Shown: one piece after another, positions 29,542 to 57,934 of the stretch
Layout of the letters: the number at the start of each line of letters is the position of its first letter
Numbering within the stretch: the stretch's first letter is position 1
Source of the DNA: an uncultured Alphaproteobacteria bacterium
GTDB taxonomy: Bacteria; Pseudomonadota; Alphaproteobacteria; HIMB59; GCA-002718135
Length of the DNA: 64,000 nucleotides
Assembly: GCA_902515745.1 (NCBI GenBank)
Contig: CABXWB010000005.1
Span: 21,303-85,302, forward strand
Reading direction: 5' to 3'
Made by a program: the position numbers and the translations under genes
Notes under the pieces: generated by a model
Seen by the model: only the letters and a program-made list of their open reading frames with translations
Database searches by the model: none
Told to the model about the DNA's origin: nothing

Positions 29542-30594
29542 ATGGAAATTACAATTCTAATTTTTTTATTTGGTGGTCTTTTTTTAGGTTGGTCACTTGG
29601 TGCCAATGATGCAGCAAATGTTTTTGGGACTGCTGTTGGGACGCGAATGGTTGGTTTCACAACTGCAGCAATAATTTGTAGTGTCTTTGTTATTCTAGGT
29701 GCAATTATTAGCGGAGCAGGTACAACAGAAACTTTAGGAAAGTTAGGTGCTATTAATGCATTGCCTGGTGCTTTTGCAGCATGTGTGGCTGCGGGAATAT
29801 CTGTTTATTTAATGACCAAAGTTGGCTTGCCTGTTTCAACAACGCAAGCGATTGTTGGAGCAATTGTTGGTTGGAATTTATACACGGGATCTTCAACTAA
29901 TCTTCAAGTTTTAATTACTATTTTAGGAACATGGATACTCTGTCCTATTATTGCAGGAGTTATTGCAATGGGTTTATTTACTTTTACAAAAAAAGTTATA
30001 CTCAATAGAAAGTTACATATTCTCAGACTTGATGCCTATACAAGAACAGCTTTACTTTTAGCAGGTGCTTTTGGTGCTTATAGTTTAGGTGCAAACAATA
30101 TTGCTAATGTAATGGGTGTCTTCGTACCTATATCACCGTTTACTGATGTTACTATTGGAAATTTATTTGTCTTTTCCTCAAAAGAACAATTATTTCTTCT
30201 AGGTGGTTTAGCAATAGCTGTTGGTGTTTTTACTTACTCGAAAAGAGTTATGTTTACCGTTGGTAATGATCTCTTAAAAATGACACCAGTAGCAGCATTT
30301 ATTGTTGTTATATCACATTCTATTGTTTTATTTTTATTTGCATCCCAGGGTATAAGTGCTTTTTTACAATCTATAAATCTTCCCTCTATACCTTTGGTAC
30401 CAGTATCAAGTTCCCAAGCTGTTGTCGGCGGCGTAATTGGAATTGGTCTTTTAAAAGGAGGAAAAGAGGTTCAATGGTCAATTGCGGGTAGAATTTCTTT
30501 GGGTTGGATGACGCTACCTATAATTGCAGCTTTAATTTCTTTAATTGTTTTATTTATTCTAGAAAATATTTTTAATTTAACGGTCTCTTTTTAA
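29542..30594 (+). CDS. pit: Inorganic phosphate transporter, PiT family
   Basis: 350 aa. It has duplicated PHO4 signatures GANDAANVFGTAVG and GANNIANVMG, plus PVSTTQAIVGAIVG. Confidence 0.92.
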   Translation: MEITILIFLFGGLFLGWSLGANDAANVFGTAVGTRMVGFTTAAIICSVFVILGAIISGAGTTETLGKLGAINALPGAFAACVAAGISVYLMTKVGLPVSTTQAIVGAIVGWNLYTGSSTNLQVLITILGTWILCPIIAGVIAMGLFTFTKKVILNRKLHILRLDAYTRTALLLAGAFGAYSLGANNIANVMGVFVPISPFTDVTIGNLFVFSSKEQLFLLGGLAIAVGVFTYSKRVMFTVGNDLLKMTPVAAFIVVISHSIVLFLFASQGISAFLQSINLPSIPLVPVSSSQAVVGGVIGIGLLKGGKEVQWSIAGRISLGWMTLPIIAALISLIVLFILENIFNLTVSF

Positions 30595-31115
30595 TTAACT
30601 GCTCGATAAGAAAAAATAAAATCTTCCTGGATTTTTGACTCAATAGCTCCTTTTCTTCTTGATCGTACTAGATCAATAGCTTCTTGTTTTTCATAATTAA
30701 ATTCAACAAGTAAAATAGCAGCTATAGTGCCAGCTCTTCCTTTGCCTCCACGGCAATGTAAAACTATATTTTTACCATCTATCAATTCGTTCTTTAATAA
30801 AACTTTTGTTGTTTCCCATTTATATTTAAAATCTTTATCTGGTGCTCCCATGTCATAAATGGGTAAATGGTACCAATGTAATTTATGTTCATAAATATTT
30901 TTGACAAACAAAGTTTTATCACACAATTTTTCAAATTCGCTATCTTCAACAAAAGAAGTAATAGAACTACAATTATTATTTTTAAATATTTCTAATTCGT
31001 TTGCTAAAATTGTTTCTTCAAATAAACCATTAGAGTTAAGGCCTGGAAAAGAAGTTAATATAATTTTGCCTGCAAATGACTTAGAGTCAATAAAATCATA
31101 ATTGCTAAATTGCAT
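30591..31115 (-). CDS. Cys-X5-Arg phosphatase (dual-specificity/PTP-like fold)
   Basis: 174 aa. It carries the P-loop VLHCRGGKGRAGT. Confidence 0.8.
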   Translation of the reverse strand: MQFSNYDFIDSKSFAGKIILTSFPGLNSNGLFEETILANELEIFKNNNCSSITSFVEDSEFEKLCDKTLFVKNIYEHKLHWYHLPIYDMGAPDKDFKYKWETTKVLLKNELIDGKNIVLHCRGGKGRAGTIAAILLVEFNYEKQEAIDLVRSRRKGAIESKIQEDFIFSYRAVN

Positions 31116-31691
31116 TTACGCTTGTTTAGCTAAAAAAGACTGTCTTGCTTCTTCTAAATAGGAACGGAAATGTTCAACATCGGGAGTTTTTTTATCTAGA
31201 ACTTTTGCTAAATCATCAAATCTTCTAAGCTCTACTGCTTCATCCATAAAAGGTTTGCTTATGAACGCATCTGCTTCTTCTTTTGTGAAAGGACCACCTT
31301 GAACTTTTAACGAAAGTTTCGATGCTTCTGATAGACTATCATAATAACCTTCTTCAACACTTGATAAATATCTTTTTGAGTCAACATGTGCTCTAATTGG
31401 TAGAATAACATCCTCACCAAAATATTTTTTTAAAAAATCAGCACCTAAATTTTCATGATGACCATCTTTCCCTTCATGAATGGGATCACCGTCCTCATAG
31501 ATAAGGTGGCCAACATCATGCAGTAATGCTGCAGCAATTGTTGGTCCTGGTAATTTATGTTTTTCAGCAAGTTCAGCACATTGGAGTGCGTGCTCAAGTT
31601 GGGTCACATCCTCATTACCATATTGAATATCAGCACCTTTTGTTTTCAAAAGATCTAAGAGATAATCTACAATATTTTCTTCCATTCTCAT
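31116..31691 (-). CDS. phnZ: HD-domain mixed-valent di-iron oxygenase, PhnZ-like (C-P bond-cleaving 1-hydroxy-2-aminoethylphosphonate dioxygenase family)
   Basis: 191 aa. Motifs QLEHALQCA, AALLHDVGH, HHENLGADFL, RAHVDSKRYL, LSEASKLSLKVQGGPF and RRFDD align with PhnZ as I recall it. The Tyr24/Glu27 pair (DIQYGNED) is present. Confidence 0.75.
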   Translation of the reverse strand: MRMEENIVDYLLDLLKTKGADIQYGNEDVTQLEHALQCAELAEKHKLPGPTIAAALLHDVGHLIYEDGDPIHEGKDGHHENLGADFLKKYFGEDVILPIRAHVDSKRYLSSVEEGYYDSLSEASKLSLKVQGGPFTKEEADAFISKPFMDEAVELRRFDDLAKVLDKKTPDVEHFRSYLEEARQSFLAKQA

Positions 31692-31779: not shown

Positions 31780-32877
31780 ATGGATAAAAAATTATTAACC
31801 CCTGGGCCTCTCACGACATCGATGTCAACAAAAGAAGCTATGCTTCATGATTGGGGTTCGAGAGATACAAAATTTATTGATCTCAATGCATCAATTAGAG
31901 ATTCTCTTGTTAAATTAATAGATGGTGAAGATAAATATCAATGTGTTCCAATGCAGGGAAGTGGAACTTTTGCTGTAGAGTCGATGGTGAGCTCTCTTAC
32001 TCAAAAAGATTCTAAAATTCTGATTCTGATCAATGGTGCTTACGGACAAAGAATGAAAAAAATGTGCACATATTTAGGGAGAGATTTTATTGAATATGAA
32101 GTTGCTGAACATGAAGTACATGACATCAATAAAATTGAAGAGTTAATTGATAGCAACAACTTAACGCACGTCTTTACTGTATATTGTGAAACAACATCGG
32201 GTATTTTAAATCCTATTGAAGACATTGCAAAATTGGTTGAAGGGAAAAATTTATCGTTATTCATCGATGCAATGAGTGCCTTTGGTGCATTACCCTTAAG
32301 TTCTAAAACAATTACTTTTGATGCTGTTGCCGCTTCATCAAACAAATGCTTAGAAGGTGTGCCAGGTGTTGGTTTCATTCTTGTTAAAAATGAAGTTATT
32401 CAAAATGCAAAAGGCAATAGTCACTCACTAAGTCTAGACTTATATGATCAATGGCAAGCAATGGAAAAAAATAAACAATGGCGATTTACACCTCCTACAC
32501 ACGTATTGGCTGCATTCAATCAAGCGATTGAGGAACATAAACAACAAGGTGGGGTAGAGGGAAGAGGTAAAAGATATAAAAAAAATTGTGAAATTATTTG
32601 TAATGGAATGAAAGAGTTGGGATTTGAACAACTACTTCCTGATAATTTGCAAGCACCAATTATTATTACTTTTAAACAACCTAATGATCCTAAATTTAAC
32701 TTTGAGAAATTTTATAATGCTCTTAGTGAAAAAGATTTTTTAATTTATCCAGGAAAACTAACAGTAGCAGAAACTTTTAGAATTGGGTGTATTGGTAATT
32801 TAGATGAACAAGACATGATGGATACAATAAAAGCTGTAAAAGAAGTCGTTACTGAATTGGGATTAACATTAAACTAA
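31780..32877 (+). CDS. phnW: 2-aminoethylphosphonate:pyruvate aminotransferase PhnW
   Basis: 365 aa. It has the N-terminus LLTPGPLTTSMSTKEAMLHDWGSRD and a class V aminotransferase fold. Confidence 0.9.
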   Translation: MDKKLLTPGPLTTSMSTKEAMLHDWGSRDTKFIDLNASIRDSLVKLIDGEDKYQCVPMQGSGTFAVESMVSSLTQKDSKILILINGAYGQRMKKMCTYLGRDFIEYEVAEHEVHDINKIEELIDSNNLTHVFTVYCETTSGILNPIEDIAKLVEGKNLSLFIDAMSAFGALPLSSKTITFDAVAASSNKCLEGVPGVGFILVKNEVIQNAKGNSHSLSLDLYDQWQAMEKNKQWRFTPPTHVLAAFNQAIEEHKQQGGVEGRGKRYKKNCEIICNGMKELGFEQLLPDNLQAPIIITFKQPNDPKFNFEKFYNALSEKDFLIYPGKLTVAETFRIGCIGNLDEQDMMDTIKAVKEVVTELGLTLN

Positions 32878-34330: not shown

Positions 34331-35437
34331 TTATTTTTTTTCGATTACAAATATTTCATTGTTAAAATAAAGACCTTTATTTTTAGCAACAATGTTTTGA
34401 ACAATTTTTTCATAGTTTTTAGTTTTTTCTACTTTCATTACTTTTTCGTCATCCATTTGATTGACATATATGGAGGCATTCCAAGCAGAAAAAACTAATG
34501 ATGTCGCTATACCTCCGCTGATTTCTGTTGGTAGAGCTCTCAATTTACATTTAATAATTCTTTTTTCTCCAAAAGATAAACTTCTTAATAAATCTTTATC
34601 TAAATTTTTCTTAAGATAAGAAATGATACTATTCCCAAGAGAAGGAAATGGGTCCTCTTTTGGCCAAATTTTACGAATTATTTCATTAGCAGGATCTTTT
34701 CCTGAAGCATGAATAGTTAATAATTTCCCTTTTGATTTTAACGCTCTAATCATTGGTTCGATGACATATTTTGATTTCTTTTCTGCTGAAATTCTTGACC
34801 GATACGGCTGTGAAGCAATAATAAGATCAAATTTATTATCTGATTTTTTTTTGGTAGGTATTAATTCATTTACGTTAAATTCTTGATCTTCGCGGTAGAT
34901 AACCATGACTGAAGGCTCTTTATAAGTATGGTTACCTGACTTTTTATTAATTTCTATATTCCATTTTTTTTCTAAAAATTCATTTTGTTTTCTTAATTGT
35001 TGGGCAAATTCAAGAGAGGTATCTCCTTTTAATTTAATAATATTCCAATTAATTTTTTTCTGTTTAACTTCATTTTTTGATTTTAGGTTTGCGGCTTCAG
35101 CGTAGTGTAGATTTGAAATGACAAAAACCGTATTCTTATGTTCAACAAACCTGTCGGGTAATTTTTCTAAACCTAATCTTACATCTTCTATGCTTATTTC
35201 TTTTGTGCAAACTAATAGAGGTACGTTAGGCTTAGCCTCGTGGCACTGACGCATAACATTCATAAGTAAGGAGCCATCACCCATACCAGCATCAAATATT
35301 TTTATGCCAGGTTTTTGAGGTTTAATTTTATTTACGTGAGGGCGTATCGCATCAGCAATTTGATTTTTTTCATTTGTTGTTGTGACAAATAATAAGTATT
35401 TTTGTCTATTATCATAAAACCTGAAATTTTTTTTCAT
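34331..35437 (-). CDS. Hypothetical protein with a class I SAM-methyltransferase-like motif
   Basis: 368 aa. It has IKIFDAGMGDGS (motif I-like) and DLIIASQPY (motif IV-like) separated by a Lys-rich insert. I recognise no confident family. Confidence 0.4.
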   Translation of the reverse strand: MKKNFRFYDNRQKYLLFVTTTNEKNQIADAIRPHVNKIKPQKPGIKIFDAGMGDGSLLMNVMRQCHEAKPNVPLLVCTKEISIEDVRLGLEKLPDRFVEHKNTVFVISNLHYAEAANLKSKNEVKQKKINWNIIKLKGDTSLEFAQQLRKQNEFLEKKWNIEINKKSGNHTYKEPSVMVIYREDQEFNVNELIPTKKKSDNKFDLIIASQPYRSRISAEKKSKYVIEPMIRALKSKGKLLTIHASGKDPANEIIRKIWPKEDPFPSLGNSIISYLKKNLDKDLLRSLSFGEKRIIKCKLRALPTEISGGIATSLVFSAWNASIYVNQMDDEKVMKVEKTKNYEKIVQNIVAKNKGLYFNNEIFVIEKK

Positions 35438-35439
35438 TA

Positions 35440-36552
35440 CTAATAAAGTCCCATTGATTTAGCAGAAGAGATGAATGCTTCTTTATTGCCAATAAAGTTT
35501 TTACCTCGTTCCCCTAAAAACGCATCATCTACTATATTATTCCATTCTTGAACAGGAACTTTTATTTCATTTAAGTTAAGAGGAACCTCTAAAGAACGCA
35601 TAAATTCACTCAAATGATTTGCGGCATTCTCTAGGTTATCGTTAAAAATTAACTTTAGTCTTTCTTCAGCTACACTATCAATTCCAACCATACTTTTAGT
35701 AATCATGGGTAAAGTAAATGAACAAGCAATACCATGCTGAATACCGTAATTGAGTGTCACAGGGTATGATAGATTGTGCGCAATAGCAGTTTTCGTATTG
35801 GAAAACGCTAAGCCAGCATGAACGCACGCCAATGCAATGTTTGAGCGTAATACAACATTTCTTAAATCTTTAGTGAGAAGTGGTAAATTTTCTAATACTA
35901 ATTTTGATGCTTGTATTGCATGAGAAGCAGAAATTGGGTTCGCATTAATATTCCAAATACTTTCCATCGAATGGGAGAGAGCATCTAAACCAGTTGAAAT
36001 GGTCAAGCCTAAAGGCTTATCAACCATAATAGATGGATCAATAATTGCTTTTTCTGCATAAAGAGATTTGTGCGCCAAAGATAATTTATTGTTTTTTTCT
36101 TTATCCCAAATTGTGGCCCAACACGTAAGCTCACTTGATGTTCCTGAAGTTGTAGGTATTGCAATAATCTTGATTGGATTTTCGACTCTTGGACTTTTCT
36201 TATTACGAACAAAATCTGTTAGATATTCTTGTTTATCTTTAAATGCAGCAATTGCTTTAGCTGTGTCTGTAACAGAACCACCACCTATAGCTAAAATATA
36301 ATCTACCGATTCATTGATTGAAGAAAATTTATTTTGTAGCTCTAAAATATCCTTATAGTCTGGATTAGGCTGAACATCCGTCATAATGGATAGTGGTGGA
36401 TTTGAAGAAGATTTTAATTCATCGCTATATTTTTTAAATATTTCTTCTGGATGTGTGATTATGATGTAGTTCTTATTTTTAAGAGCATCATGTACTTCTT
36501 TAAATCTATTTTCTCCAAAAATAATTTCAACAGGGTTAAAATAATTCCACAT
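35440..36552 (-). CDS. Iron-containing alcohol dehydrogenase (group III ADH; size and context compatible with the phosphonoacetaldehyde reductase/HEP dehydrogenase subfamily)
   Basis: 370 aa. It has AIGGGSVTDTAK, GLDALSH and a HxxxH region (AIAHNLSYP...QHGIA). Confidence 0.8.
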   Translation of the reverse strand: MWNYFNPVEIIFGENRFKEVHDALKNKNYIIITHPEEIFKKYSDELKSSSNPPLSIMTDVQPNPDYKDILELQNKFSSINESVDYILAIGGGSVTDTAKAIAAFKDKQEYLTDFVRNKKSPRVENPIKIIAIPTTSGTSSELTCWATIWDKEKNNKLSLAHKSLYAEKAIIDPSIMVDKPLGLTISTGLDALSHSMESIWNINANPISASHAIQASKLVLENLPLLTKDLRNVVLRSNIALACVHAGLAFSNTKTAIAHNLSYPVTLNYGIQHGIACSFTLPMITKSMVGIDSVAEERLKLIFNDNLENAANHLSEFMRSLEVPLNLNEIKVPVQEWNNIVDDAFLGERGKNFIGNKEAFISSAKSMGLY

Positions 36553-36556: not shown

Positions 36557-37636
36557 TTAAATTGATTTTGCCGCTTTAGTTAAAATTGTCATTTTCTCAA
36601 TTGCTTGTTCTCGCGTAAAGAAACCTAAACCACAATCTGGTGCAGCTATTAAACGGTCTTCATCAATATGTTCAAGTGAATCTTTGATACGGACTCTTAC
36701 TTCTTCAACAGACTCCATTCTACTTTTTGCAATATCAATAAATCCAAAAATTACTTTTGTTTTTGTAAATTTTTCTAAAAGATTTAAGTCATTATGTCTG
36801 TGGGAATCTTCCAAAGATACTTCATCAATAGTTGAATCATCTACAAGTGATGCAATTCTATCATAAGCATCTAGATCAGCTTTTTTATAACCTTCTGAAT
36901 CTAGTGAGTTGGGATAACCACAACAAATATGACATACACGTTGAACTTCTTTAGGAATACCATGCATCATTCTTTCTAAATTTTCCATACCATATGAATG
37001 AGCTTCATCGGGCTTTCTAGCAAATACTGGTTCATCAATTTGAATATACTGACAGCCTGCATCTACAAGTGCTTTAACTTCTTTATTAAGTGCTAATGCT
37101 AAATCAAAACCAAGTTTTTTCATGTCATCATAGTAGTTGTTCGCAATTGAATCTGTTATTGTCATTGGTCCAGGTAGGGTAATTTTAACTGGATTTTTTG
37201 TAAATTGTTGTGCGCTCTTCCAGTCTAGATGCATACGTATTTCTTTACTTGAAATCGGTGCAACAATAGTTGGAAGATCAGCTTCGAACGCACCTTGTCG
37301 TACTGACTTATGTGTAACTTCTTTAAAACTTACTCCATTTAAAAATCGACATTGATATAAGACATAACTCTCACGTCTCACTTCTCCATCTGTTGGAACA
37401 TCAATTCCCGCATTTACCTGATCAATAATAACTTCTTTAATTGCTTCTAAAAATAATTTTTCAGCATCCGCACCCGCAGACTCTAACGCTTTTTCATATG
37501 CACCAGGTGACCAATTCGATAATAATCCTTTTGACGCTTTTCTCTCTTCTTCTGATTTTGTCCCTAAAAACCAATCTTGAATCGGCGTCTGTTTTGGTTT
37601 TGGATATGCACCTATGGTAGTAGTTGTAAGAGGCAT
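36557..37636 (-). CDS. MetE C-terminal-domain-only protein (cobalamin-independent methionine synthase / alkyl-thiol transferase superfamily)
   Basis: 359 aa. It has IQIDEPVF, RVCHICCGYP (a His-x-Cys zinc motif) and APDCGLGF (the distal zinc Cys). An SD sequence GGGAGA lies upstream. Confidence 0.8.
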   Translation of the reverse strand: MPLTTTTIGAYPKPKQTPIQDWFLGTKSEEERKASKGLLSNWSPGAYEKALESAGADAEKLFLEAIKEVIIDQVNAGIDVPTDGEVRRESYVLYQCRFLNGVSFKEVTHKSVRQGAFEADLPTIVAPISSKEIRMHLDWKSAQQFTKNPVKITLPGPMTITDSIANNYYDDMKKLGFDLALALNKEVKALVDAGCQYIQIDEPVFARKPDEAHSYGMENLERMMHGIPKEVQRVCHICCGYPNSLDSEGYKKADLDAYDRIASLVDDSTIDEVSLEDSHRHNDLNLLEKFTKTKVIFGFIDIAKSRMESVEEVRVRIKDSLEHIDEDRLIAAPDCGLGFFTREQAIEKMTILTKAAKSI

Positions 37637-37660: not shown

Positions 37661-37690
37661 AATAAAACAGCGGCTTTTATAAAGCCGCTG
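37661..37690 (-). terminator. Strong intrinsic terminator/attenuator after the binding-protein gene
   Basis: The minus strand reads CAGCGGCTTT-ATA-AAAGCCGCTG (10-bp stem) followed by TTTTATTTT. It lies 28 nt after the SBP stop and about 25 nt before the metE-like ATG. Confidence 0.8.
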
Positions 37691-37718
37691 TAGTAAAAAG
37701 TTAACAATAAAGTAATCT

Positions 37719-38972
37719 CTATAAAAGATCCTCTATTTCTTCCATCATCTCTTCTTGAAGATCAGCCATATTATCTGCACTGCCTGTAGCAATTTCTTCA
37801 GTGTAATCATATATTACCTGAGTTATTGCTAGACCGTTTTCACCAGGATATGCAAACCAATCAGCCAATAAAGGTAATTGATTTACAGCAGTTAGCTTGT
37901 TTGGATTTTTAGTATAAAAATCACCTAACAAATCATTGGCTGCTTTATTTGGTGGAACATATCCAGTAGTTTCAGCAACTAAAGCTGCACCTATACCAGA
38001 AGTGATAAACTTTAAGAAAGTCCATGCAGCATCTACTCTTGCTGGATCATCAGATGTAGAAACCAACATCGCAGCATTTCCACCCGCTGGAAGTCTTGCT
38101 GGAGTTCCTCCATTTACACCTGGCATTCCTGGAAATGGTGCTGTTTTAAGTTCAAAATCTGCTTTGGCTGCGTTCACTGAACCTAAGCTTGATGTTGACC
38201 AGAAAAACATACCAATAGTGCCTGCATTAAATGCAGCTTGACCGTCAGCAATTGAATAGTTTGGCATATTACAACCACTCATTATGTCATGCATTTGTTG
38301 TAAAGTTGCTAAACCAGCGTCTCCACCCATATTAACAGCACCATCTTTTACCATTGGAACATTTTGGGTATGCATTAATGCTTGGTGAAACCAGTTACCT
38401 GTAATATTCCAACCAAAATATAAAGTTCCTTTTCCAGCTGCTTCTAATTTATTACAAGCTGCGATAACTTCATCCCAGTTAGTTGGGATGCTATCTATAC
38501 CTGCTTCAGCTAATAGATCCATGTTATAGTATCCAACTGGTGTTGATACAGAAAAAGGCAACCCATATACGTCACCACCAAAGGTAGATAGACTTAACAT
38601 AGCAGAGTGATAACCATCTTTTTCAAAGTCAGCTTCTCCTGCAATAAAAGGCTCTAATGATTTTGCAATCCCTTTATCAACAAGTGGTGCTTGTCTGTTA
38701 AGACCTTGCATTGTTACATCTGGTAAATTACCTGAAGTAGACTCCCTGAAGATTGTTGCGGTTGCATCCTCATAGTTTTCATAAGTTGCTCTAAATTTAA
38801 CTTGAATATCTGGATGTGCTTTTTCAAACTCTGGCATAATAGCTTGAAACGTAACATCGAATAATCCTGAATAAGGATAAGCTACTTCTATTTCAATAGA
38901 CTTAGCTGAATTAACAGAACCATAAAAACCAAAAGCTAATACGGCTGCCAATCCTGTAATTAATTTTTTCAT
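37719..38972 (-). CDS. ABC transporter periplasmic substrate-binding protein, family 1 (UgpB/sugar-type fold); candidate organophosphonate/organophosphate binder
   Basis: 417 aa with a signal peptide (MKKLITGLAAVLAFGFYGSVNSA). It is flanked by phnY/phnA and by cognate UgpAEC-like genes. Confidence 0.8.
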   Translation of the reverse strand: MKKLITGLAAVLAFGFYGSVNSAKSIEIEVAYPYSGLFDVTFQAIMPEFEKAHPDIQVKFRATYENYEDATATIFRESTSGNLPDVTMQGLNRQAPLVDKGIAKSLEPFIAGEADFEKDGYHSAMLSLSTFGGDVYGLPFSVSTPVGYYNMDLLAEAGIDSIPTNWDEVIAACNKLEAAGKGTLYFGWNITGNWFHQALMHTQNVPMVKDGAVNMGGDAGLATLQQMHDIMSGCNMPNYSIADGQAAFNAGTIGMFFWSTSSLGSVNAAKADFELKTAPFPGMPGVNGGTPARLPAGGNAAMLVSTSDDPARVDAAWTFLKFITSGIGAALVAETTGYVPPNKAANDLLGDFYTKNPNKLTAVNQLPLLADWFAYPGENGLAITQVIYDYTEEIATGSADNMADLQEEMMEEIEDLL

Positions 38973-39024
38973 TTAATCCTCCCGATTGAATATAATAGTT
39001 TAATCTATCATGTAGCCCTAGAGG

Positions 39025-39042
39025 GTTACAATTTTATTACGA
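39025..39042 (-). promoter_or_regulatory. Candidate Pho-box-like direct repeat TCGTAAT-aaaa-TTGTAAC
   Basis: Read on the minus strand, it lies about 50 nt upstream of the SBP start. It has the same 7+4+7 geometry and the same TTGTAAC heptamer as 28816-28822. Confidence 0.3.
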
Positions 39043-39109
39043 AAATATAACTAAAAAATATGCTTATTTTTCCACAGCATTAATGAAAATTAGAGAAAAA
39101 CTGATTTAT

Positions 39110-40552
39110 TTACCAAGGTAGCGAAAAGGTTTTTACATTAGTAAAACTTTTCATTGCTTCAATAACACCCTCTTTGTAACCAAGACCTGAATCTTTTATT
39201 CCTCCAAAAGGAGACATTTCAATTCTATAGCCTGGAACCTCCCAAATATTTACCGTACCAACATTTAAACCTTGAATATATTTTTTTGCTCGCATGAAGT
39301 TATTTGTACATACACCAGATGATAATCCGAATGCAGTTGAATTAGATATTTTCATTACAGCTTCATCGTCATTAGGCACACGAATGATTGGGATAACTGG
39401 ACCAAATGTTTCTTCTAAAACCAATTCACTTTTAGGATCAACATTATCTACAACTATTGGAGGTAACAAAGCACCCTTTCTTCCAGGATGATATAAAATT
39501 TTTGCACCGTCTTCTTCAGCCATAGAAACTCTTTTATCAAAAAGTTCTGCAGCTTGAGCATTAACAACAGTACCTAAGTCTGTTTCCATATTCATAGGAT
39601 CGCCAAATTTAATTTTCTTAGCACGCTCTAGAGCCATTTCAACAAATTGATCTGCGATAGATTCTTGTACTAATATTCTTTTAACAGCTGTACAACGTTG
39701 ACCAGAGTTTTTCGTTGCTCCAGTAACAGCTAGCTCAACAGCTTTTTTAAGATCATCACCATCTAAGTCATTTAAAACAATTAATGGATCATTACCACCA
39801 AGCTCAAGAACTGTTCTTTTATATCCAGCTTGTTCAGCAATTAATTTTCCTACACCTACACTGCCTGTAAAAGTAATTAGATCAATATTTGGATTCTTGA
39901 TCATTTCTGATCCGATATCTTGAGGCCAGCCTGTAACAACTGAAAACATTTCTGGTGGTAAACCAGCTTCATATAAAACATCAGCAAGAACCATTGCGGT
40001 TAAGGGAGTTAACTCTGTCTGCTTACAAACAGTACAATTGTTTGTTGCAATTGAAGGCGCAATTTTATGCGCTACCATATTCAAAGGATGATTAAATGGA
40101 GTGATTGCTGAAATAGCTGTTAATGGTTCTCTTATAGTAAATATTTTTCTGGCTTTTCCATGTGGAGTTAAATCACAAGAAAATATTTCTCCATCATCTA
40201 GAATACAAAGTTGAGCCGTTAATGAAAATACATCGAAAGCTCTTCCTACTTCGTATAAAGAATCTTGTTTTGAGATTCCAAGTTCTAAAGTAATAATATC
40301 AGAAATTTCTTCTTTTCTTTTAACAAGTACTTCTGCAGCAGTTTGAAGAATTTTTTGTCTCTCATATCTTGTAAGTTTAGGTTGGTAATTTGCAGCAATA
40401 TCTAGAGCCTTTCTTGCATGCTCAGCAGTACCGGCAGGGACCGTGCCGATTACTTCACCTGTAAAAGGGTACTCAACATTTATTGTTTTGTCTGAAGTAA
40501 CTTTTTCTCCAGCAATACGCATTGCTTCATTAATCATTTTTTTGTGCATCAT
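39110..40552 (-). CDS. phnY: Aldehyde dehydrogenase, probable phosphonoacetaldehyde dehydrogenase PhnY
   Basis: 480 aa. It has ALDH motifs (ELGGNDP, catalytic Cys in GQRCTAV). It overlaps phnA by 4 nt, the arrangement of the PhnW-PhnY-PhnA pathway. Confidence 0.75.
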
Positions 40553-41790
40553 AGGGCTCCATTTATTGCATAATAAAATGCATCATAGTTATATAATTGT
40601 TTGCTAGTATCTATGTTTTGTAATTTTAAATTAGATATGAATGGCACTTCTCTTTCATGAAGTCCACCGTGTGAACGCAAAGGTTCATTTAATCCAGAAA
40701 GATTGTGTTTATCTTTCGATGAACCAATGGTCATAAATTCTGAAGACATACATATTATGTCTCCCATTCTATCAGGGGGTAAGTTATAAGTAGAGCATCC
40801 TTCGTCTTTTGTTAAAACAACTTCTATATCTTTTATTTCTTTGATAGCATTTACAACTGAATCTACCTTACTTTTGTCTTCTAAATAAATTGTTGCAAAA
40901 GAACCAAGTGAACCATGATGCACGACATATGGATCTGTAATTGGTAGAATAACTTTAGCCATGTTTGGTTCAAATTTATTATCTAAATAATCTTGTAAAA
41001 ATATTGCATTAGGTGAACCGTCTTCTTTTGATTTTGGTTTCATACCGTGATCTGCTGTAATGATTATAGAAACATTCTCCTTATTTAAAAGACCAATATA
41101 TTTATCAAACATTGCATAAAATTTATTTGCTGTTTCATTTCCTGGTGCATATTTGTGTTGAATATAATCCGTAGTCGATAAATACATGATATTTGGTTTG
41201 AACTCTTCAAGAAGCTTTACACCTGCGGCCATTACAAATTCAGAAAGTCCTTCAGAGTATACTTCTGGCACTGGCATTCCCAACCAATCGTTTACATTAT
41301 CTATACCATTGAGATCTTTTGTTGCTTGATCAGATTTTTCAGCAGAAAAACAAATAGCTCTCTCATCATTAAAACTTAATCCGTTTCCTAAAAGTGTTCT
41401 CAGCTTATCTTTTGCAGTAACAAGAGCAATTTTAGAACCAGAATTGTAAAATTTTTCAAAAATAGTTGGTGCTCGCATATATTTTGGGTCATTCATCATT
41501 ACTTCTTCACCAGTCTCAGGTGTATAAAAGAAGTTTCCGCATATACCGTGAACAGAACTTGGCTGCCCAGTTACAATGGAAATATTATTAGGATTTGTAA
41601 AACTTGGAATAGCGCTGTGGACAAGTAGGTTTTCACCGTTTGCAATTAATTTATCAAGATTTGGTGTAAGATCTGATTTTGATGCTTCGTCGAGATACTC
41701 TTTTTGACTACCATCAAGGCATATAACAATAGCAGTTTTTGAGAAAGAGGTTGGATATTCTCTTTTATTAATTTCTAAATTATCGGACAC
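40549..41790 (-). CDS. phnA: Phosphonoacetate hydrolase PhnA (alkaline-phosphatase superfamily)
   Basis: 413 aa. The sequence [14 protein letters not shown]...[28 protein letters not shown] matches the PhnA signature as I recall it. Confidence 0.8.
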
Positions 41791-41867
41791 GATTTAAACT
41801 AATATATATCATTAAAAATACGAATTTATAGTTATCTACTTGTTAAACTCAATCATAATTTGAATAT

Positions 41868-41900
41868 TTGTTAATAAAATTGAAATAAAACTGAAATAAT
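41868..41900 (+). promoter_or_regulatory. Three tandem 11-bp Pho-box-like units TTGTTAA-taaa-ATTGAAA-taaa-ACTGAAA-taat, just upstream of a TATAAT at 41907-41912
   Basis: Direct repeats with helical periodicity replace a -35 element in the 180-bp divergent spacer between phnA and the ABC ATPase gene. Confidence 0.35.
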
Positions 41901-41970
41901 TGGATTTATAATATTCTCAAATTTAATAAAATTTTGTAGATTAAATATAATTATAAGGGGAGGAGATTAA

Positions 41971-43110
41971 GTGGGCACAATATCACTTAAAAATATTTCA
42001 AAGTCATTTGGGTCTACGCAAGTATTAAACAATTTAAATGTTGATATACAAGAGGGTGAATTTTTAACATTAGTTGGTCCATCTGGTTGTGGTAAATCCA
42101 CCTTACTCCGAATCATTGCAGGATTAGAACAACAAACTTCAGGCGATGTATTAATTGATAATAAGAATGTAAATAAAATTAGAGCCAGCGAGCGAGATCT
42201 TGCAATGGTATTTCAATCATACGCTTTATATCCACATTTAACTGTAAGAAAAAATTTAGAAACACCTCTAAGACTGAGAGATTATAATGCTTTTGAACGC
42301 CTTCCTTTAATAGGGAATTTTTCTCCAAACAAAAAAAATAAAACTGAGTCTATCAATCAATTAGTTAATAAAACATCTGAAACACTTCAGATTTCTGAAC
42401 TACTGGATAGAAAACCAGGACAATTATCAGGGGGCCAAAGACAAAGAGTAGCTCTTGGTCGCGCAATGGTAAGAGAACCTGTTGCATTCTTAATGGATGA
42501 ACCACTGTCAAATTTAGATGCCGCTCTAAGAGTGCATATGCGATCTGAATTATCGGAACTTCACAATTCACTTAAAACAACATTTGTTTATGTAACGCAT
42601 GATCAAGCAGAAGCATTAACAATGTCTTCTCGTATGGCGGTAATGATTGATGGCAATCTATTACAACTTGATACACCACAAGAAGTATATGATAATCCTT
42701 CATCATTAAGTGTTGCACAATTTGTTGGCAGTCCTAAAATAAATATTTTTAATGGATCTTCAGATTCTAGTGGAACTGTTAATTTTTTAAATGTTAACCT
42801 AAAAAGAAAAAGTTCTGAAAGTAATTCAGATTTACACATAGGAATTCGACCAGAACATTTAGAAATTACTAATAATAAAGATGAAAACACATTTAGTGGC
42901 ACTGTTGCTTACAGAGAAAATTTAGGATCAGATATATACTTCCATGTTAATATAGAAGACAACTCAAAAAAAATAATTGTAAGAGGCTTACCTCAATTTA
43001 CACATCAAATTACAAATGGTTCAAGTGTAAATATCAAGAGAGATTCAAATAAAGCATTGTTATTTAATCAAACAGGGATGAGGATTCATTTTAATAATGC
43101 AATGGGATAA
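41971..43110 (+). CDS. ABC transporter ATP-binding protein, MalK/UgpC type (GTG start)
   Basis: 379 aa. It has Walker A GPSGCGKST, the LSGGQRQRVALGRA signature, Walker B FLMDEPLSNLD and a C-terminal regulatory domain. The SD sequence is GGGGAGGAG. Confidence 0.9.
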   Translation: MGTISLKNISKSFGSTQVLNNLNVDIQEGEFLTLVGPSGCGKSTLLRIIAGLEQQTSGDVLIDNKNVNKIRASERDLAMVFQSYALYPHLTVRKNLETPLRLRDYNAFERLPLIGNFSPNKKNKTESINQLVNKTSETLQISELLDRKPGQLSGGQRQRVALGRAMVREPVAFLMDEPLSNLDAALRVHMRSELSELHNSLKTTFVYVTHDQAEALTMSSRMAVMIDGNLLQLDTPQEVYDNPSSLSVAQFVGSPKINIFNGSSDSSGTVNFLNVNLKRKSSESNSDLHIGIRPEHLEITNNKDENTFSGTVAYRENLGSDIYFHVNIEDNSKKIIVRGLPQFTHQITNGSSVNIKRDSNKALLFNQTGMRIHFNNAMG

Positions 43111-43125
43111 GGATAATATTTACTA

Positions 43126-44082
43126 ATGCATAATTCAAAGGCTCATCTATGGTTTATTGCCCCTGCAATAATACTCATGATAATTATTTTAATCTTTCCT
43201 CTTTTTCTTGCAGGTGGGATTTCCTTTACTGACTATAATTTAGGCAACAAAACATTTGAATGGATTGGGTTAGAGAACTATGACAAAATGTTTAACCGAA
43301 AAACTTATGTGAAGATGATTTGGGCAACAGCAACGTATGTAATTGTTGTGGTGCCTATTTCAGTTATACTTGGTTTATGTGCAGCAATGCTCTTAAATTC
43401 TCTACGATTTGGTGCTGACATATATAAAACTATTTTCTTTCTTCCAGTTATGGCGACGCTTCTGGCAATGGCTATTGCGTGGGAATTCACTCTTCACCCA
43501 ACTCTTGGAATAGTAAATAGTTTTTTAGCTAATGGTTGTGGTGGAGCAAGAGAATTTATTTTTGGTTTTCATTGGTTACCATGGGTAAACTCAGAACAAA
43601 GCTGGTATGCAGTGGCATGTGCTAATAACATGGACTTTCCTTATTGGTTAAAACAAAAAAATACTGCAATTTGGACTGTGTGTTTTATTGGAATATGGCA
43701 AGCCTTTGGTTTCAATATGGTTTTATATTTAGCCGGATTAACAGGTATACCAAGAGAACTATATCAAGCTGCCGAAATGGATGGAGCTAAATCAACATGG
43801 GAACAATTTAAACTTGTGACATGGCCAATGCTTGGTCCAACAACTTTATTTGTTGTAACCATAACGACTATTAGAACCTTTCAAGTTTTTGATACAATTG
43901 AAATACTCACAAAAGGTGGTCCATCTAAAACAACCTATGTTATGATGTATGCAATTTTTGAAAAAGCTATTCAACAAAATTTAACAAGTATTGGTGCAGC
44001 TATCACAGTTGTCTTCATTGGCTTTATATTGATATTAACTTTCTTCCAAAGATATATCATTGAGAAAAGGGTTCATTATTAA
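43126..44082 (+). CDS. ABC transporter permease (UgpA/MalF-like)
   Basis: 318 aa. It has the EAA loop ELYQAAEMDGAKSTWEQFKLVTWPML. Confidence 0.88.
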   Translation: MHNSKAHLWFIAPAIILMIIILIFPLFLAGGISFTDYNLGNKTFEWIGLENYDKMFNRKTYVKMIWATATYVIVVVPISVILGLCAAMLLNSLRFGADIYKTIFFLPVMATLLAMAIAWEFTLHPTLGIVNSFLANGCGGAREFIFGFHWLPWVNSEQSWYAVACANNMDFPYWLKQKNTAIWTVCFIGIWQAFGFNMVLYLAGLTGIPRELYQAAEMDGAKSTWEQFKLVTWPMLGPTTLFVVTITTIRTFQVFDTIEILTKGGPSKTTYVMMYAIFEKAIQQNLTSIGAAITVVFIGFILILTFFQRYIIEKRVHY

Positions 44083-44975
44083 TGGAAGCTAAACAGTATA
44101 TTGGGGAAGGTTGGAAACATGCAATATTGATTATTGGTGCAATTGTTGTGTTGTTGCCTTTTTATATGATGGTTTCAATGTCATTAAAATCTCAACAAGA
44201 AATTCAATCTATTTCTGGAGGCCTAATTGGTGCTCAAGAAACTCAGACATTTCCCGTATGTGTAAAAACTGGATACTCAGAAGAAGAATGCACAATGAAA
44301 CCATATAAATACAACTATTGGTTTGCTTTCGAAAAGGCTCCCATTCCAAGATACTTGATGAATGGTGTTATTGTAACTTTATCAATTTTTATCATTCAAG
44401 TTCTTGTCGCTTTACCGTGTGCCTACGCTCTGGCCAAACTTAGATTTTATGGACGAGAGTTTGTTTTCTCCATGGTGTTATTTTGTTTACTCATCCCAGT
44501 GCATGGAATTGCACTTCCACTTTACGTCATGCTTGCCCAGGCAGGTTTGGTCGATACCTATTCTGCCTTAATACTCCCCTGGACAATATCGGTGTTTGGA
44601 ATTTTTCTAATGCGGCAATTTTTTATGACAGTCCCAGATGAATTAATTGACGCCGCCAGGATGGATGGAATGGGAGAGTATGCTATAGTCTGGAAAGTAA
44701 TGCTTCCAACTGCGATACCAGCATTACTTGCCTTTGCTATTTTCTCAGTAGTTGCACACTGGAATGATTATTTCTGGCCTCGAATGGTAATTACTGGAAA
44801 TAGAGATCTCTTTACGCCACCTCTTGGTATCAGAGAATTTAGAGGTGGAATTGATAGTGATGAGTTTGGTCCAATGATGGCTTCAATTGTTACAGTAACA
44901 GTACCTCTCATTGTTGCTTTTATAATTGCGCAAAAAAGATTTATTGAAGGAATTACTTTAACAGGAATGAAGTAA
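44082..44975 (+). CDS. ABC transporter permease (UgpE/MalG-like)
   Basis: 297 aa. It has the EAA loop ELIDAARMDGMGEYAIVWKVMLP. Confidence 0.88.
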   Translation: MEAKQYIGEGWKHAILIIGAIVVLLPFYMMVSMSLKSQQEIQSISGGLIGAQETQTFPVCVKTGYSEEECTMKPYKYNYWFAFEKAPIPRYLMNGVIVTLSIFIIQVLVALPCAYALAKLRFYGREFVFSMVLFCLLIPVHGIALPLYVMLAQAGLVDTYSALILPWTISVFGIFLMRQFFMTVPDELIDAARMDGMGEYAIVWKVMLPTAIPALLAFAIFSVVAHWNDYFWPRMVITGNRDLFTPPLGIREFRGGIDSDEFGPMMASIVTVTVPLIVAFIIAQKRFIEGITLTGMK

Positions 44976-44984: not shown

Positions 44985-45827
44985 TTGTCTATCAATTTTA
45001 TTTTTCTTTTAATTATTTTATCTTCACTGTGTCACGCAATTTGGAGTGCCATAATTAAATCAAGTAAAAATCCCTTATCACTAATGGGAATTACTTCTAT
45101 CTTAGAAGTAGTCATTTTTTTTCCTTTAACATTCACTGTTCCTTTTCCCTCAATAGAAGTTTGGTATTTTCTCATAGCAACCGTTATCATTCATGTTTTT
45201 TATAGATTGAATGTAATTTATTCTTATAGGTACGGTGACCTGTCCTACATTTATCCAATCTCTAGGGGAAGTTCATGTCTATTTGTTGCTATCATTAGTA
45301 TTTTGTTTTTAAGTTCAGATATTAGTGTTGCTGGCTTTATTGGAATATTAATTGTTTGTATTGGTTTATTTTTAATATCGTATTCGAAAAATTTATCTTT
45401 TAACTTTAGAGGTTTTGCTCTTGCGATTTCAACTGCTATTTTAATTACTGCATATACTTTAGTTGACGGAGTCGGAGTTAGGCTTTCGGAAAACGGTTTT
45501 TCGTATATTTATTGGCTCTTCACTCTAAATGGTATTCCTTTATTAGTTATAGGTTTAATTTCTAAGAATGGATTGCGAAAAACAGAAACGTATAATTTTA
45601 GTTCTGGCATAGCAGCAGGTATATTTGCAACAAGTAGTTATGCAATTGTTGTTTGGAGTATGCAATTTATAGAAATAGCTTATGTCTCTAGTATTAGAGA
45701 AATAAGCATTGTATTTGCTTCCATTATTGGCATGGTTTTCTTATTTGAGAGAAATGCGAAATCGAGAATTATTCCCTCTATTTTAATAGTAAGTGGTATT
45801 TCAGCGGTTTATTTTCAAATTCTATAG
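44985..45827 (+). CDS. EamA/DMT-family membrane transporter (TTG start)
   Basis: 280 aa with about 10 TM segments and a duplicated EamA-like architecture. Confidence 0.7.
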   Translation: MSINFIFLLIILSSLCHAIWSAIIKSSKNPLSLMGITSILEVVIFFPLTFTVPFPSIEVWYFLIATVIIHVFYRLNVIYSYRYGDLSYIYPISRGSSCLFVAIISILFLSSDISVAGFIGILIVCIGLFLISYSKNLSFNFRGFALAISTAILITAYTLVDGVGVRLSENGFSYIYWLFTLNGIPLLVIGLISKNGLRKTETYNFSSGIAAGIFATSSYAIVVWSMQFIEIAYVSSIREISIVFASIIGMVFLFERNAKSRIIPSILIVSGISAVYFQIL

Positions 45828-55277: not shown

Positions 55278-56324
55278 ATGTTAGCTGTTGAAGTTAAAAA
55301 TCTGACTCATGAGATTAATAATAAAAAAATCTTAAATAATATTGAGTTCAATCTAACCAAGGATAGCATTTCTTGTATTCTTGGTCCTTCAGGAAGTGGA
55401 AAAACAACATTATTAAAACTTATTGCAGGTTTAGAAAAAGTACAATCTGGTGAAATCTTAATAAATGGCGAAGAGGTGAGTAGTACAAAAAAACATTTGC
55501 CAACTGAAAAGAGAAAAATTGGATTTTTATTTCAAGACTATGCTTTGTTTCCACATTTAACAGTCAAGCAAAACTTAGAGTATCCCATAAATTATAAAAA
55601 TTCAAATTATAGAATTGAGGATATTATTGATTTAATAAAACTTCCAAACTCTCTAAATAAATTTCCCCATGAGTTAAGTGGTGGCGAACAACAAAGAGTA
55701 GCATTAGCAAGATCAATTATTTCTCAACCTGATTTACTTTTATTAGATGAGCCATTTTCGAGTCTTGATTTGAATTTAAGAGAAGAGGTCAGGGATGATA
55801 CTTTGCATTTATTACAAAAATCTAACATATCAGTGATTATTGTTACTCATGATCCATTTGAAGCTATGTTCATTTCTAATCAAATAAATATTATGGATAC
55901 CTCAGGATATATTATTCAATCTGGTAGCCCGGCAGAATTATATAAAAATCCTAAAAATTCGTATGTGACTGAATTTTTTGGCGAAACAAATAGGTTTCAT
56001 GGAAAAGTTAATAACTCTTTTGTAGATACGCCAGTAGGAAAAATTAAAGCTCCAAATGAACTTGAAAATACAAATGTAGAAATACATGTAAGACCACAAG
56101 GAGTAAAATTAAAACAACAACCAACACCTGTTAATGGAATAAAAGGTACTGTTATGGCCTCAAAATTAATGGGGTCTTTTAGTTTTGTGCATCTTTCAGT
56201 GCTTGATGACAATAATGAGGTTATTCATGTTCATAGTCACATGCCGCCAGAATTTAATCCTCAACAATCATCTGCTGTCGAAATTGAGATAGATCAATCT
56301 CAAGCTTTTATTTTTAAAAATTAG
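55278..56324 (+). CDS. fbpC: Fe(3+) ABC transporter ATP-binding protein
   Basis: 348 aa. It has Walker A GPSGSGKTT and the LSGGEQQRVALAR signature. It is convergent with fbpB. Confidence 0.8.
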   Translation: MLAVEVKNLTHEINNKKILNNIEFNLTKDSISCILGPSGSGKTTLLKLIAGLEKVQSGEILINGEEVSSTKKHLPTEKRKIGFLFQDYALFPHLTVKQNLEYPINYKNSNYRIEDIIDLIKLPNSLNKFPHELSGGEQQRVALARSIISQPDLLLLDEPFSSLDLNLREEVRDDTLHLLQKSNISVIIVTHDPFEAMFISNQINIMDTSGYIIQSGSPAELYKNPKNSYVTEFFGETNRFHGKVNNSFVDTPVGKIKAPNELENTNVEIHVRPQGVKLKQQPTPVNGIKGTVMASKLMGSFSFVHLSVLDDNNEVIHVHSHMPPEFNPQQSSAVEIEIDQSQAFIFKN

Positions 56325-57934
56325 TTGCTTTCTTTTTTTTGTGAAACTCTTTGAAGAGTTGTGTTTAAAAATATTACTGGACCAAGACCAACTACAATAA
56401 TTATTAGAGCAGCAAATGATGATTCTTGTAAAAGTTCATCGGATGCATATTGGTAGACATAAGTAGCTAAAGTTTCAAAATTAAAAGGTCTTAGCAGTAG
56501 AGTAATTGGAAGTTCTTTTAAAATATCAACAAAAACTAGGATGCCTCCTATTAAGATATTTGTATAAATTAAGGGTAATACGATTACTCTAATTGTATTT
56601 AGAAAACCTTTTCCCATTGTTTGGGAAGCATCAACTGCATTTGGATGAACTTTAAGTATTCCTGATCGCAGGGCAGCGTTACCAACTGCTAAAAATCTAG
56701 TTGTGTAAGCAAAAATTAATACTAAGAAACCACCTGCAGCATAACCCATTTCTATATTAGTTATTGAGTTTAACCATCCAAAAAATATAACAATGCCAAC
56801 TGCAAGTATAGTACCTGGTAGAGCATAACCACATGAAGCTACAAAAATTAATCCTTTTTGAAAAGTATTTGATTTATAATTTGATACAATAATTAGAATT
56901 ATAGAAACTAGCATGACAGTAGCAGCTCCTGCAAGTGCAAGCGATATACTTGTTGTTGCAGCAAATATAACTTCACTAAAATTAATTATAGAAAAACCAC
57001 TTAAAACGAAATTTAAAAGAATGAGCACAGGAATTACAAATCCAAGAGTAATTGGGGTCAAACAAATTAAAAAACAAAGTAACTTTCCAGAAAATGAAAT
57101 TGTTTCTGACTCAAGCATATTTTGACCACTACTTTTTTCAAAATATCTTTGTCTACGTCTTGCTAAATATTCAATAGTTAAAAGGACAACAACAAAAATA
57201 AATAAAACTGAAGATATTTGTGCTGCACCTGATAGACTGTTCATTCCCAACCAAACATTAAATACACCAAGGGTTAGAGTCTCTAGAGCAAAGTATTCAA
57301 CTGTTCCAAAATCAGAAATTGTTTCCATTAATACGAGTGCTAGGCCAGCAAATATTCCCGGTCTTGCAAGTGGCAGGGCAACAGAAAAAAAACTGCTTCG
57401 TCCATAAATTAAACTTGTTTGATAAAAAGATAAGGGCACGGTTAAAAAAGATGCTCTGGTCATCATGTAAATATATGGATAAAGAACACACGACATAACT
57501 AAAATAGCTCCGCCCATTGATCGTATTTCTGGGAACCAATAGTCGTCAACATTACTCCAGTTAAAAATTTCCCTTAGTAGTTTTTGTAATGGACCAGCGT
57601 ATTCTAAAAAATCAGTATATGTATAAGCAATGATATATGCAGGTACTGCAGCAGGTAATAATAGTGCCCACTCAAAAAAATTTTTACCTATAAAGTTATA
57701 TCTTGTAACTACCCATGCTGAAGAAACACCAAAGATCATACTTAGAATACCTACTCCGATCATGAGCACAATTGTGTTGTAAACATATCTTGGTAGAACG
57801 GTTGAGAATAAATGTGGCCATAGACTGGTGTCTCCTAAAAATGCGGAGTAAAAAATAGCAACTATTGGACAAATAATAAAAAGAGCAAGAAAAGTTGCTA
57901 ATGTAGATGAGCTATTCCAATTATACAAATTCAC
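56321..57934 (-). CDS. fbpB: Fe(3+) ABC transporter permease, fused two-domain type
   Basis: 537 aa. It is a duplicated permease architecture typical of FbpB/SfuB/HitB. Confidence 0.82.
   Translation of the reverse strand: MNLYNWNSSSTLATFLALFIICPIVAIFYSAFLGDTSLWPHLFSTVLPRYVYNTIVLMIGVGILSMIFGVSSAWVVTRYNFIGKNFFEWALLLPAAVPAYIIAYTYTDFLEYAGPLQKLLREIFNWSNVDDYWFPEIRSMGGAILVMSCVLYPYIYMMTRASFLTVPLSFYQTSLIYGRSSFFSVALPLARPGIFAGLALVLMETISDFGTVEYFALETLTLGVFNVWLGMNSLSGAAQISSVLFIFVVVLLTIEYLARRRQRYFEKSSGQNMLESETISFSGKLLCFLICLTPITLGFVIPVLILLNFVLSGFSIINFSEVIFAATTSISLALAGAATVMLVSIILIIVSNYKSNTFQKGLIFVASCGYALPGTILAVGIVIFFGWLNSITNIEMGYAAGGFLVLIFAYTTRFLAVGNAALRSGILKVHPNAVDASQTMGKGFLNTIRVIVLPLIYTNILIGGILVFVDILKELPITLLLRPFNFETLATYVYQYASDELLQESSFAALIIIVVGLGPVIFLNTTLQRVSQKKESN

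Follow-up and report, generated by a model that had tools for sequence, protein, structure and literature searches.

What does a Ugp-type importer carry when its genes are wrapped around two genes of phosphonate breakdown? The question is raised by a 64,000-nucleotide stretch of DNA (the window) from an uncultured alphaproteobacterium of the order HIMB59 (contig CABXWB010000005.1), in which positions 37719-44975 encode a complete CUT1/Ugp-type ATP-binding cassette (ABC) importer, split around phnY-phnA. A first-pass annotation had proposed that this four-component importer replaces the usual phosphonate transporters and brings in an esterified phosphonate. We found all four genes at the coordinates it gave, with the gene for the substrate-binding protein (SBP) on the phnA-phnY strand and the ATPase and permease genes divergent across a 180-bp spacer. 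The parts that define CUT1 ABC importers (TC 3.A.1.1) are all present, namely a family-1 SBP, two BPD_transp_1 permeases with EAA loops and a MalK-type ATPase whose C-terminal regulatory domain is of the TOBE type. From its pocket and gene context, we consider it somewhat better than an even bet that the importer serves an organophosphate or organophosphonate, most likely an esterified or hydroxyalkyl phosphonate, that would feed a route from a metallophosphoesterase through PhpC or PhnW to PhnY and PhnA.

Pocket of the substrate-binding protein

Judged by family models, the SBP is not UgpB. All four components scored below the NCBIfam cut-offs of their Ugp models (UgpB 66.7 vs 411 bits, UgpC 390.3 vs 432, UgpA 101.8 vs 335 and UgpE 128.6 vs 297). 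AepX, AepS and PhnS belong to pfam13343 and PhnD to PF12974, whereas the SBP belongs to PF01547/PF13416 and had no match at E ≤ 0.001 to PF12974, pfam13343, TIGR03261 or TIGR03227. In the sequence comparison with AepX, PhnS, PhnD and UgpB that the first-pass annotation had proposed, the SBP falls in none of them. The host genome (90% complete) yielded no PhnD-family SBP (PF12974), no PhnS2/AepX-type SBP and no UgpB over the family cut-offs.

The nearest solved relatives of the SBP, by sequence and by fold, are the glycerophosphocholine (GPC)-bound UgpB of Mycobacterium tuberculosis (6R1B), Escherichia coli UgpB, Phaeobacter UgpB (9LFF) and a Thermus binder of the dinucleotide U3G (7C0x), all of which bind phosphate esters. 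The AlphaFold2 model of the SBP (pLDDT 85.9) matched 6R1B in Foldseek with an E-value of 7e-26 and a TM-score of 0.81-0.85. By these relationships, the SBP was shown to descend from the phosphate-binding branch of CUT1 binders, to which UgpB, the GPC-binding UgpB of M. tuberculosis and the Thermus dinucleotide binder belong.

In the UgpB branch, phosphate is held by two Tyr and two Ser, the glycerol hydroxyls are contacted by Gly303, Glu88 and Arg393, and the glycerol is clamped by Trp188/Trp191 (Wang et al. 2025, PMC12718374). We mapped this pocket by aligning the SBP family to two UgpBs, with the numbering set via a UgpB proxy of roseobacter type that was itself aligned to 9LFF (paper number = chain index - 20; 9/9 residues agreed). 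The phosphate tetrad of 9LFF (Tyr64, Ser143, Ser266 and Tyr342) corresponds to Y64, S143, S259 and Y338 of the SBP, invariant in 21 family members and both UgpBs, and Gly303 corresponds to the invariant G298. The glycerol binders are replaced, Glu88 by M88 (a variable hydrophobic position in the family) and Arg393 by T384; W188 is conserved, and the second clamp Trp meets W194 in the alignment only if a 3-residue insertion is crossed. Hence, with the tetrad kept and the Glu and Arg lost, the pocket is predicted to grip a phosphoryl group and not a glycerol diol.

Across the SBP family (44% to 100% identity), 97 positions are invariant, every mapped pocket residue among them, and the changes specific to the HIMB59 order amount to only three substitutions and one short insertion. 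Hence, one ligand type is likely throughout the family and was probably unchanged on recruitment into the phn cluster. A conceptual parallel is AepP, a 2-aminoethylphosphonate (2-AEP) antiporter of the major facilitator superfamily (MFS); this relative of glycerol-3-phosphate carriers, derived from GlpT, has kept the phosphate-binding residues and lost the glycerol-binding ones (Murphy et al. 2021, PMC8316502). Like the present importer, AepP, AepXVW, AepSTU, PhnSTUV and PhnCDE are placed beside phnW, phnY or phnA.

An importer-esterase module recruited into a phosphonate cluster

We counted an orthologous module where an SBP of at least 43% identity stood with the same ATPase and permeases and with a Metallophos gene of the same subfamily. 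SBP orthologues (43-68% identity) were present in 9/400 genomes of a class-wide sample, in 10 of the 63 genomes of one family and in 3 of the 39 of one order, and none was found outside the Alphaproteobacteria in a 400-genome sample of the phylum. All 17 loci outside HIMB59 with usable flanks have the gene order ATPase-Perm1-Perm2-SBP-metallophosphoesterase, which strongly backs the link between importer and phosphodiesterase that had been suspected from the island alone. In the window, the esterase gene lies on the same island, 3.4 kb from the SBP gene and on the opposite strand. A true UgpB over its cut-off coexists with the orthologous module in four genomes. Hence, the module is separate from Ugp.

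The GpdQ/CpdA-like phosphodiesterase that the first-pass annotation had named is real, with GpdQ (2DXL/3D03, E 2e-13) and Rv0805 as its closest structures, and the fold of GpdQ (Enterobacter aerogenes), Rv0805 and SpdA is common to it and all SBP-linked esterases. Among the esterases outside HIMB59, pairwise identity is 36-72%; with the window enzyme, it is 25-37%. Their best NCBIfam match is SpdA, at 183-245 bits (174-245 bits with the island enzyme included) against a cut-off of 400. Hence, these esterases form a sister subfamily of SpdA. Two variants were seen among these loci: one rhizobial-type genome has two tandem copies of the SBP-linked metallophosphoesterase (L105:7465-9281), and another locus (L160) has a second, fragmentary esterase match just downstream (7690-8469) with a short reading frame.

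The Ugp systems (UgpBAEC/UgpQ of E. coli; Phaeobacter sp. MED193, 9LFF/9LFJ; M. tuberculosis, 6R1B) share with this module the CUT1 makeup, the SBP fold, the Tyr/Ser/Ser/Tyr tetrad with its Gly, and an operon, here the ancestral one, in which import is paired with a cytoplasmic phosphoesterase (UgpQ in the case of Ugp). They differ in sequence (~20-27% identity), in the exchange of Glu/Arg for Met/Thr, in the aligned spacing of the Trp clamp (WNITGNW here, WQSW in Ugp) and in the phosphoesterase, which is a calcineurin-like metallophosphoesterase here and not a GDPD-family UgpQ; no GDPD domain was found among the island open reading frames (ORFs) scanned. In the window, unlike in Ugp, the importer is also embedded in phnA-phnY.

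Conservation within the order was followed in the best 80 related loci (GORG-Tropics single-cell genomes), against which the island proteins were run by tblastn; statements on core synteny cover those loci whose fetched flanks reach the genes in question. The SBP is 100% identical in AG-461-D09, AG-337-F02 and AG-903-O20 (o__HIMB59; f__GCA-002718135; g__AG-337-I02) and 87% identical in AG-404-P08 and AG-895-J15 (f__HIMB59), as classified in Table S1 of Molina-Pardines et al. 2023 (PMC10734472). The host is thus a member of the AEGEAN-169/HIMB59 group (former SAR11 subclade V) and not of the Pelagibacterales in the strict sense. Flexible phosphate islands reported in the same study carry SET-domain, LpxH and RfaG genes and resemble the left part of the present island; the study mentions neither phnA nor a ugp-like importer.

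Both families have an invariant core in which genes for an iron-dependent alcohol dehydrogenase (Fe-ADH), a MetE-like enzyme, the SBP, PhnY and PhnA diverge from those for the ATPase, Perm1 and Perm2, even though the families have diverged to 72% identity in PhnA and 58% in Fe-ADH. In related loci, the block includes a gene for a 368-aa protein (unk368/Fe-ADH/MetE-like/SBP/PhnY/PhnA). Since the block is syntenic in these loci, its arrangement is not due to chance. The SBP belongs to an alphaproteobacterial family without prior characterisation, and gene order shows that its module was split in the HIMB59 order and welded into a phosphonate-catabolic cluster. Close homologues of the SBP in marine metagenomes are grouped into clusters with hundreds of sequences and contigs each.

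The genes for PhnW, PhnZ, a cupin-like protein, Pit and the esterase are variable, and none of them is in the HIMB59-family loci. PhnW is also not within 10 kb in three loci of the host's own family (L028, L033 and L055). A PhnW protein query had no match in five HIMB59-family genomes (92-94% complete) that carry the cluster, and the PhnW family model found none over its cut-off in four of these (best 143 bits vs 361, with 467 bits for the host genome as control). Hence, 2-AEP cannot be the common substrate, and phosphonoacetaldehyde in the HIMB59-family genomes can only come from the Fe-ADH.

Clusters with PhpC, PhnY and PhnA but without PhnW have been described as a route for 2-hydroxyethylphosphonate (HEP) (Piazza et al. 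2026, PMC13576164). The present cluster likewise joins a PhpC-type Fe-ADH to PhnY-PhnA, and the HIMB59-family genomes without PhnW show the exact HEP-dedicated signature. It differs in adding the Ugp-like importer and the MetE-like enzyme, and the window adds PhnW, PhnZ and the esterase; the window Fe-ADH falls short of the TIGR03405 cut-off (Table 1), and the presence of PhnW departs from the HEP-dedicated pattern, in which a PhpC-type dehydrogenase joins PhnY-PhnA and neither PhnW nor PbfD occurs. In PMC13576164, the transporters are left 'putative' (drawn grey), and the available part of its text names no Pelagibacter, ABC importer or binding protein.

The ligand and its rivals

We infer the ligand and the order of steps as follows. 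The SBP would capture a periplasmic ligand, most likely a HEP-type compound or a phosphonate monoester, the permeases and ATPase would import it, and the cytoplasmic GpdQ-like metallophosphoesterase would strip the ester group. Phosphonoacetaldehyde would be made from HEP by the PhpC-type dehydrogenase or, only in genomes that have it, from 2-AEP by PhnW; PhnY would convert phosphonoacetaldehyde to phosphonoacetate, and PhnA would split this into acetate and phosphate. The ligand is probably a phosphonate or phosphonate ester rather than a glycerol-phosphate, a sugar or plain 2-AEP, and free HEP is possible. An ester ligand without glycerol fits best because the pocket has a place for a phosphoryl head and none for a glycerol tail, and because a phosphoesterase is all that the ligand appears to need in most hosts. 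The esterified phosphonate of the first-pass annotation therefore gains from the esterase linkage, and its example, a glycerophosphono-ethanolamine, is disfavoured by the replacement of the glycerol-gripping Glu and Arg.

Links to carbon-phosphorus (C-P) cleavage also exist outside the clade. In a roseobacter-type genome (L152:11169-17383), the importer-esterase operon is followed by genes for a PhyH/ectoine-hydroxylase-like 2-oxoglutarate-dependent oxygenase, PhnN, PhnZ (over cut-off) and PhnM/L/K, a compact mixture of oxidative and C-P-lyase genes; PhnJ lies on the same contig at a distance of 7 kb. PhnJ was present in 13 of the 14 module-bearing genomes tested. In the class-wide sample, it was found in 8/9 module genomes vs 51/391 others (Fisher p 1e-6, over 7 families whose genomes are not independent); within the single family of 63 genomes, 53 are positive and the comparison is uninformative. 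These links (C-P lyase in 13/14 other hosts, the one adjacency and the PhpC-PhnY-PhnA set in HIMB59) likewise fit a non-glycerol phosphonate or phosphate ester best.

A narrower version of this reading, which we hold only tentatively, is that the five-gene module is dedicated to the uptake and de-esterification of small phosphonate monoesters, as a front end for C-P lyase in roseobacters and rhizobia or for PhpC/PhnW-PhnY-PhnA in AEGEAN-169. Such esters would include those of methyl- and hydroxyethyl-phosphonate that are released from polysaccharides and glycoconjugates of marine origin. A role of the esterase as a general substitute for PhnP in the C-P lyase pathway was considered and rejected: PhnJ was not found in the host genome, which has the esterase, and only one locus adjoins C-P lyase.

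Several points weigh against a phosphonate or phosphonate ester. The phosphoryl tetrad cannot separate P-O-C esters from P-C phosphonates, and the residue map is a sequence alignment at ~27% identity in which the second clamp Trp crosses an insertion. Phn genes lie within 10 kb in only 1/17 loci outside the HIMB59 order, and the HIMB59-family homologue of the esterase lies apart from the cluster. C-P lyase carriage may merely mark a phosphorus-scavenging lifestyle in genomes that are not phylogenetically independent. The island also holds general phosphorus-starvation genes (Pit, PhoU-like and PlcP-like/GT4), and co-location could reflect co-regulation and not one pathway.

These points lend themselves to the main rival, a general phosphodiester scavenger unrelated to C-P bonds, which we regard as a serious contender on the unlikely side. 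It would take up non-glycerol diesters (2',3'-cyclic nucleotides, short RNA fragments or sugar-phosphate diesters) for the SpdA-like esterase and phosphatases to process, and would adjoin phn genes only because all of these are phosphorus-starvation genes on one flexible island. The family nearest to the esterase, SpdA, is indeed a 2',3'-cyclic-nucleotide phosphodiesterase, the top PDB sequence match of the SBP is the Thermus U3G binder, a phosphonate gene is missing from the surrounding 10 kb in 16/17 outside operons, and the Pit, PhoU-like, CX5R phosphatase and PlcP-like/GT4 genes of the island match the flexible phosphorus islands of HIMB59 (PMC10734472). Against it speak the place of the SBP gene, which phnY and the Fe-ADH operon flank in two families as diverged as these, the roseobacter-type module that is contiguous with C-P lyase and PhnZ genes, and the strong tie to genomes with PhnJ.

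A dedicated importer of free 2-AEP, standing in for PhnSTUV, AepXVW or PhnCDE, appears improbable. PhnW, PhnY and PhnA are all in the window, no classical phosphonate SBP was found in the host genome, and AepP sets a precedent for a glycerol-3-phosphate carrier scaffold turned to 2-AEP. This reading is opposed by the PhnW-less HIMB59-family genomes, whose cluster is the same and whose SBP is 87% identical, by the three own-family loci without PhnW within 10 kb, by pocket residues that are invariant across all these contexts, and by the esterase, the universal partner elsewhere, which has no role for a free aminophosphonate. 2-AEP is thus unlikely as the defining substrate, since the same importer accompanies PhnY, PhnA and Fe-ADH where PhnW is missing.

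An ordinary Ugp system (for glycerol-3-phosphate or glycerophosphodiesters) or a sugar importer is very improbable: the best family matches of the four components are UgpB, UgpC, UgpA and UgpE and CUT1 sugar systems abound in the host clade (~13 other SBPs), but every component falls below the Ugp cut-offs, the Glu and Arg that bind glycerol are gone, a true UgpB is present in addition to the orthologous module in four genomes, and the phosphate tetrad speaks against a neutral sugar.

The phosphonates in dissolved organic matter of high molecular weight are largely methyl- and hydroxyethyl-phosphonate esters on polysaccharides. To our knowledge, the characterised phosphonate importers all bind free phosphonates, and in the literature searched, an importer of the present class was not found linked to phosphonates. 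Of the dissolved organic phosphorus in the sea, about a fifth or more is phosphonate (PMC10734472, PMC11366302), and alkaline-phosphatase-like enzymes have only been postulated for freeing phosphonate esters (Sosa et al. 2017, PMC5649143). In AEGEAN-169, a 'partial 2-AEP pathway' (phnY and phnA only) is known from one clade and the full pathway from another, with transcripts in situ (PMC11366302); by inference, these two clades match the present two families. If the importer carries a phosphonate or phosphonate ester, the 'partial 2-AEP pathway' would be explained as a HEP route, and the SBP would provide a new marker gene for HEP and ester cycling, from an importer that is common in marine metagenomes and that an abundant oligotroph has wired to genes for C-P cleavage. 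If the ligand is an ordinary phosphate diester, this would be a routine phosphorus-scavenging system.

Island layout and regulatory signals

Gene calls were based on the ORF listing and on Pfam and NCBIfam scans, with curated equivalog cut-offs applied (Table 1). The phosphorus island spans ~20 kb (~25165-45827) between housekeeping genes, with MurJ and tryptophanyl-tRNA synthetase (TrpRS) on the left and a FYDLN protein, an MFS transporter and MsrPQ on the right. Besides the features listed, it holds Pit with a PhoU-like protein and a group of SET-domain, LpxH-like and GT4 genes. The CX5R phosphatase of the first-pass annotation is present. The MalK-OB match of the ATPase is sub-threshold (22.5 bits, cut-off 27).

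Table 1. Features of the importer locus and the surrounding phosphorus island (window coordinates)
Feature	Position	Strand	Basis
CX5R dual-specificity/PTP-type phosphatase	30591-31115	-	family scan
PhnZ-like HD oxygenase	31116-31691	-	family scan
PhnW, 2-AEP:pyruvate transaminase	31780-32877	+	accessory to core; none in HIMB59-family genomes
GpdQ/CpdA-like class-III-PDE metallophosphoesterase, cytoplasmic, 262 aa	33538-34326	+	best solved relatives GpdQ, Rv0805
368-aa protein, no family match, weak methyltransferase match	34331-35437	-	family scans
PhpC-type Fe-alcohol dehydrogenase (HEP dehydrogenase type)	35440-36552	-	TIGR03405, 363 bits (cut-off 424); PMC13576164
MetE-core-like Zn enzyme	36557-37636	-	beside SBP gene throughout clade
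Terminator-like hairpin, 11 pairs + T run	37667-37691	-	just 3' of SBP stop codon; consensus scan only
SBP, periplasmic, 417 aa, CUT1, UgpB-related	37719-38972	-	PF01547 + PF13416, E ~1e-35; Sec-type signal peptide
PhnY, phosphonoacetaldehyde dehydrogenase	39110-40552	-	TIGR03250, 797 bits (cut-off 636)
PhnA, phosphonoacetate hydrolase	40549-41790	-	TIGR02335, 468 bits (cut-off 408)
Divergent promoter spacer, exactly 180 bp	41791-41970	.	between phnA and ATPase gene
MalK/UgpC-type ABC ATPase	41971-43110	+	UgpC best match, TOBE_2, Walker A, LSGGQ
UgpA/MalF-like permease	43126-44082	+	UgpA best match; EAA-loop variant 'QAAEMDGA...TWP'
UgpE/MalG-like permease	44082-44975	+	UgpE best match; EAA-loop variant 'DAARMDGM...MLP'
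EamA-family membrane protein, 'phn_DUF6'-like	44985-45827	+	'phosphonate utilization associated' TIGR03340 best match, 141 bits, below cut-off

The EamA gene follows the permeases in all GCA-002718135-family loci with a reaching flank, including the PhnW-less L028, L033 and L055, and is missing from HIMB59-family loci. Its product could be a second phosphonate carrier. The statement that the importer replaces the usual transporters thus stands as far as no PhnD or PhnS2/AepX-type SBP was found in the host genome, and is too strong with the EamA protein next door.

The MetE-like, Fe-ADH and 368-aa genes lie directly downstream of the SBP gene. The MetE-like enzyme is rare (1/400 sampled Pseudomonadota), and its gene was found within 10 kb in 0/17 importer loci outside HIMB59. 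A 50% identical paralogue occurs elsewhere in the host genome (C4:42434-43474; L149:9432-10481), where its gene directly follows an unannotated ORF of 511 aa and an Opp/Dpp-type ABC system with a 706-aa SBP lies 1.6 kb away. The HIMB59-family homologue of the 368-aa protein (33-39% identity) lies outside the cluster, beyond the permease genes and next to an M24/creatinase-like peptidase (L071:1368-3759).

Elsewhere in the window, the SBP_bac_6 protein at 57946-58965 was considered as a hidden AepX/PhnS and rejected on the family models (58-59 bits vs cut-offs of 310-393). This 339-aa protein adjoins a 537-aa fused double permease (56321-58965, minus strand), and the pair has weak PhnS/PhnS2 and PhnU2 matches (58-63 bits vs 310-593). 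An Fe3+-type or some other system is more probable here than AepXVW.

Upstream of the ATPase operon, the spacer holds three 11-bp-periodic TTG..AATAAA-like units (TTG..A(A/C)ATAAA; ~41868-41900), which resemble a Pho box and show partial conservation between the two families of the HIMB59 order (L071 spacer 7055-7190). No PhoB over its curated cut-off was found in the host genome, so that control by phosphate is at most hinted at by these repeats. A promoter scan gave fewer sites than in shuffled controls. The hairpin just 3' of the SBP gene would leave SBP transcript in excess while allowing read-through to the MetE-like and Fe-ADH genes. The 137-bp gap between phnY and the SBP gene contains a perfect palindrome with 8-bp arms (TGTAGCCC...GGGTTACA, 39011-39030), which may serve as an operator or as a site of RNA processing through which the SBP gene would be controlled separately.

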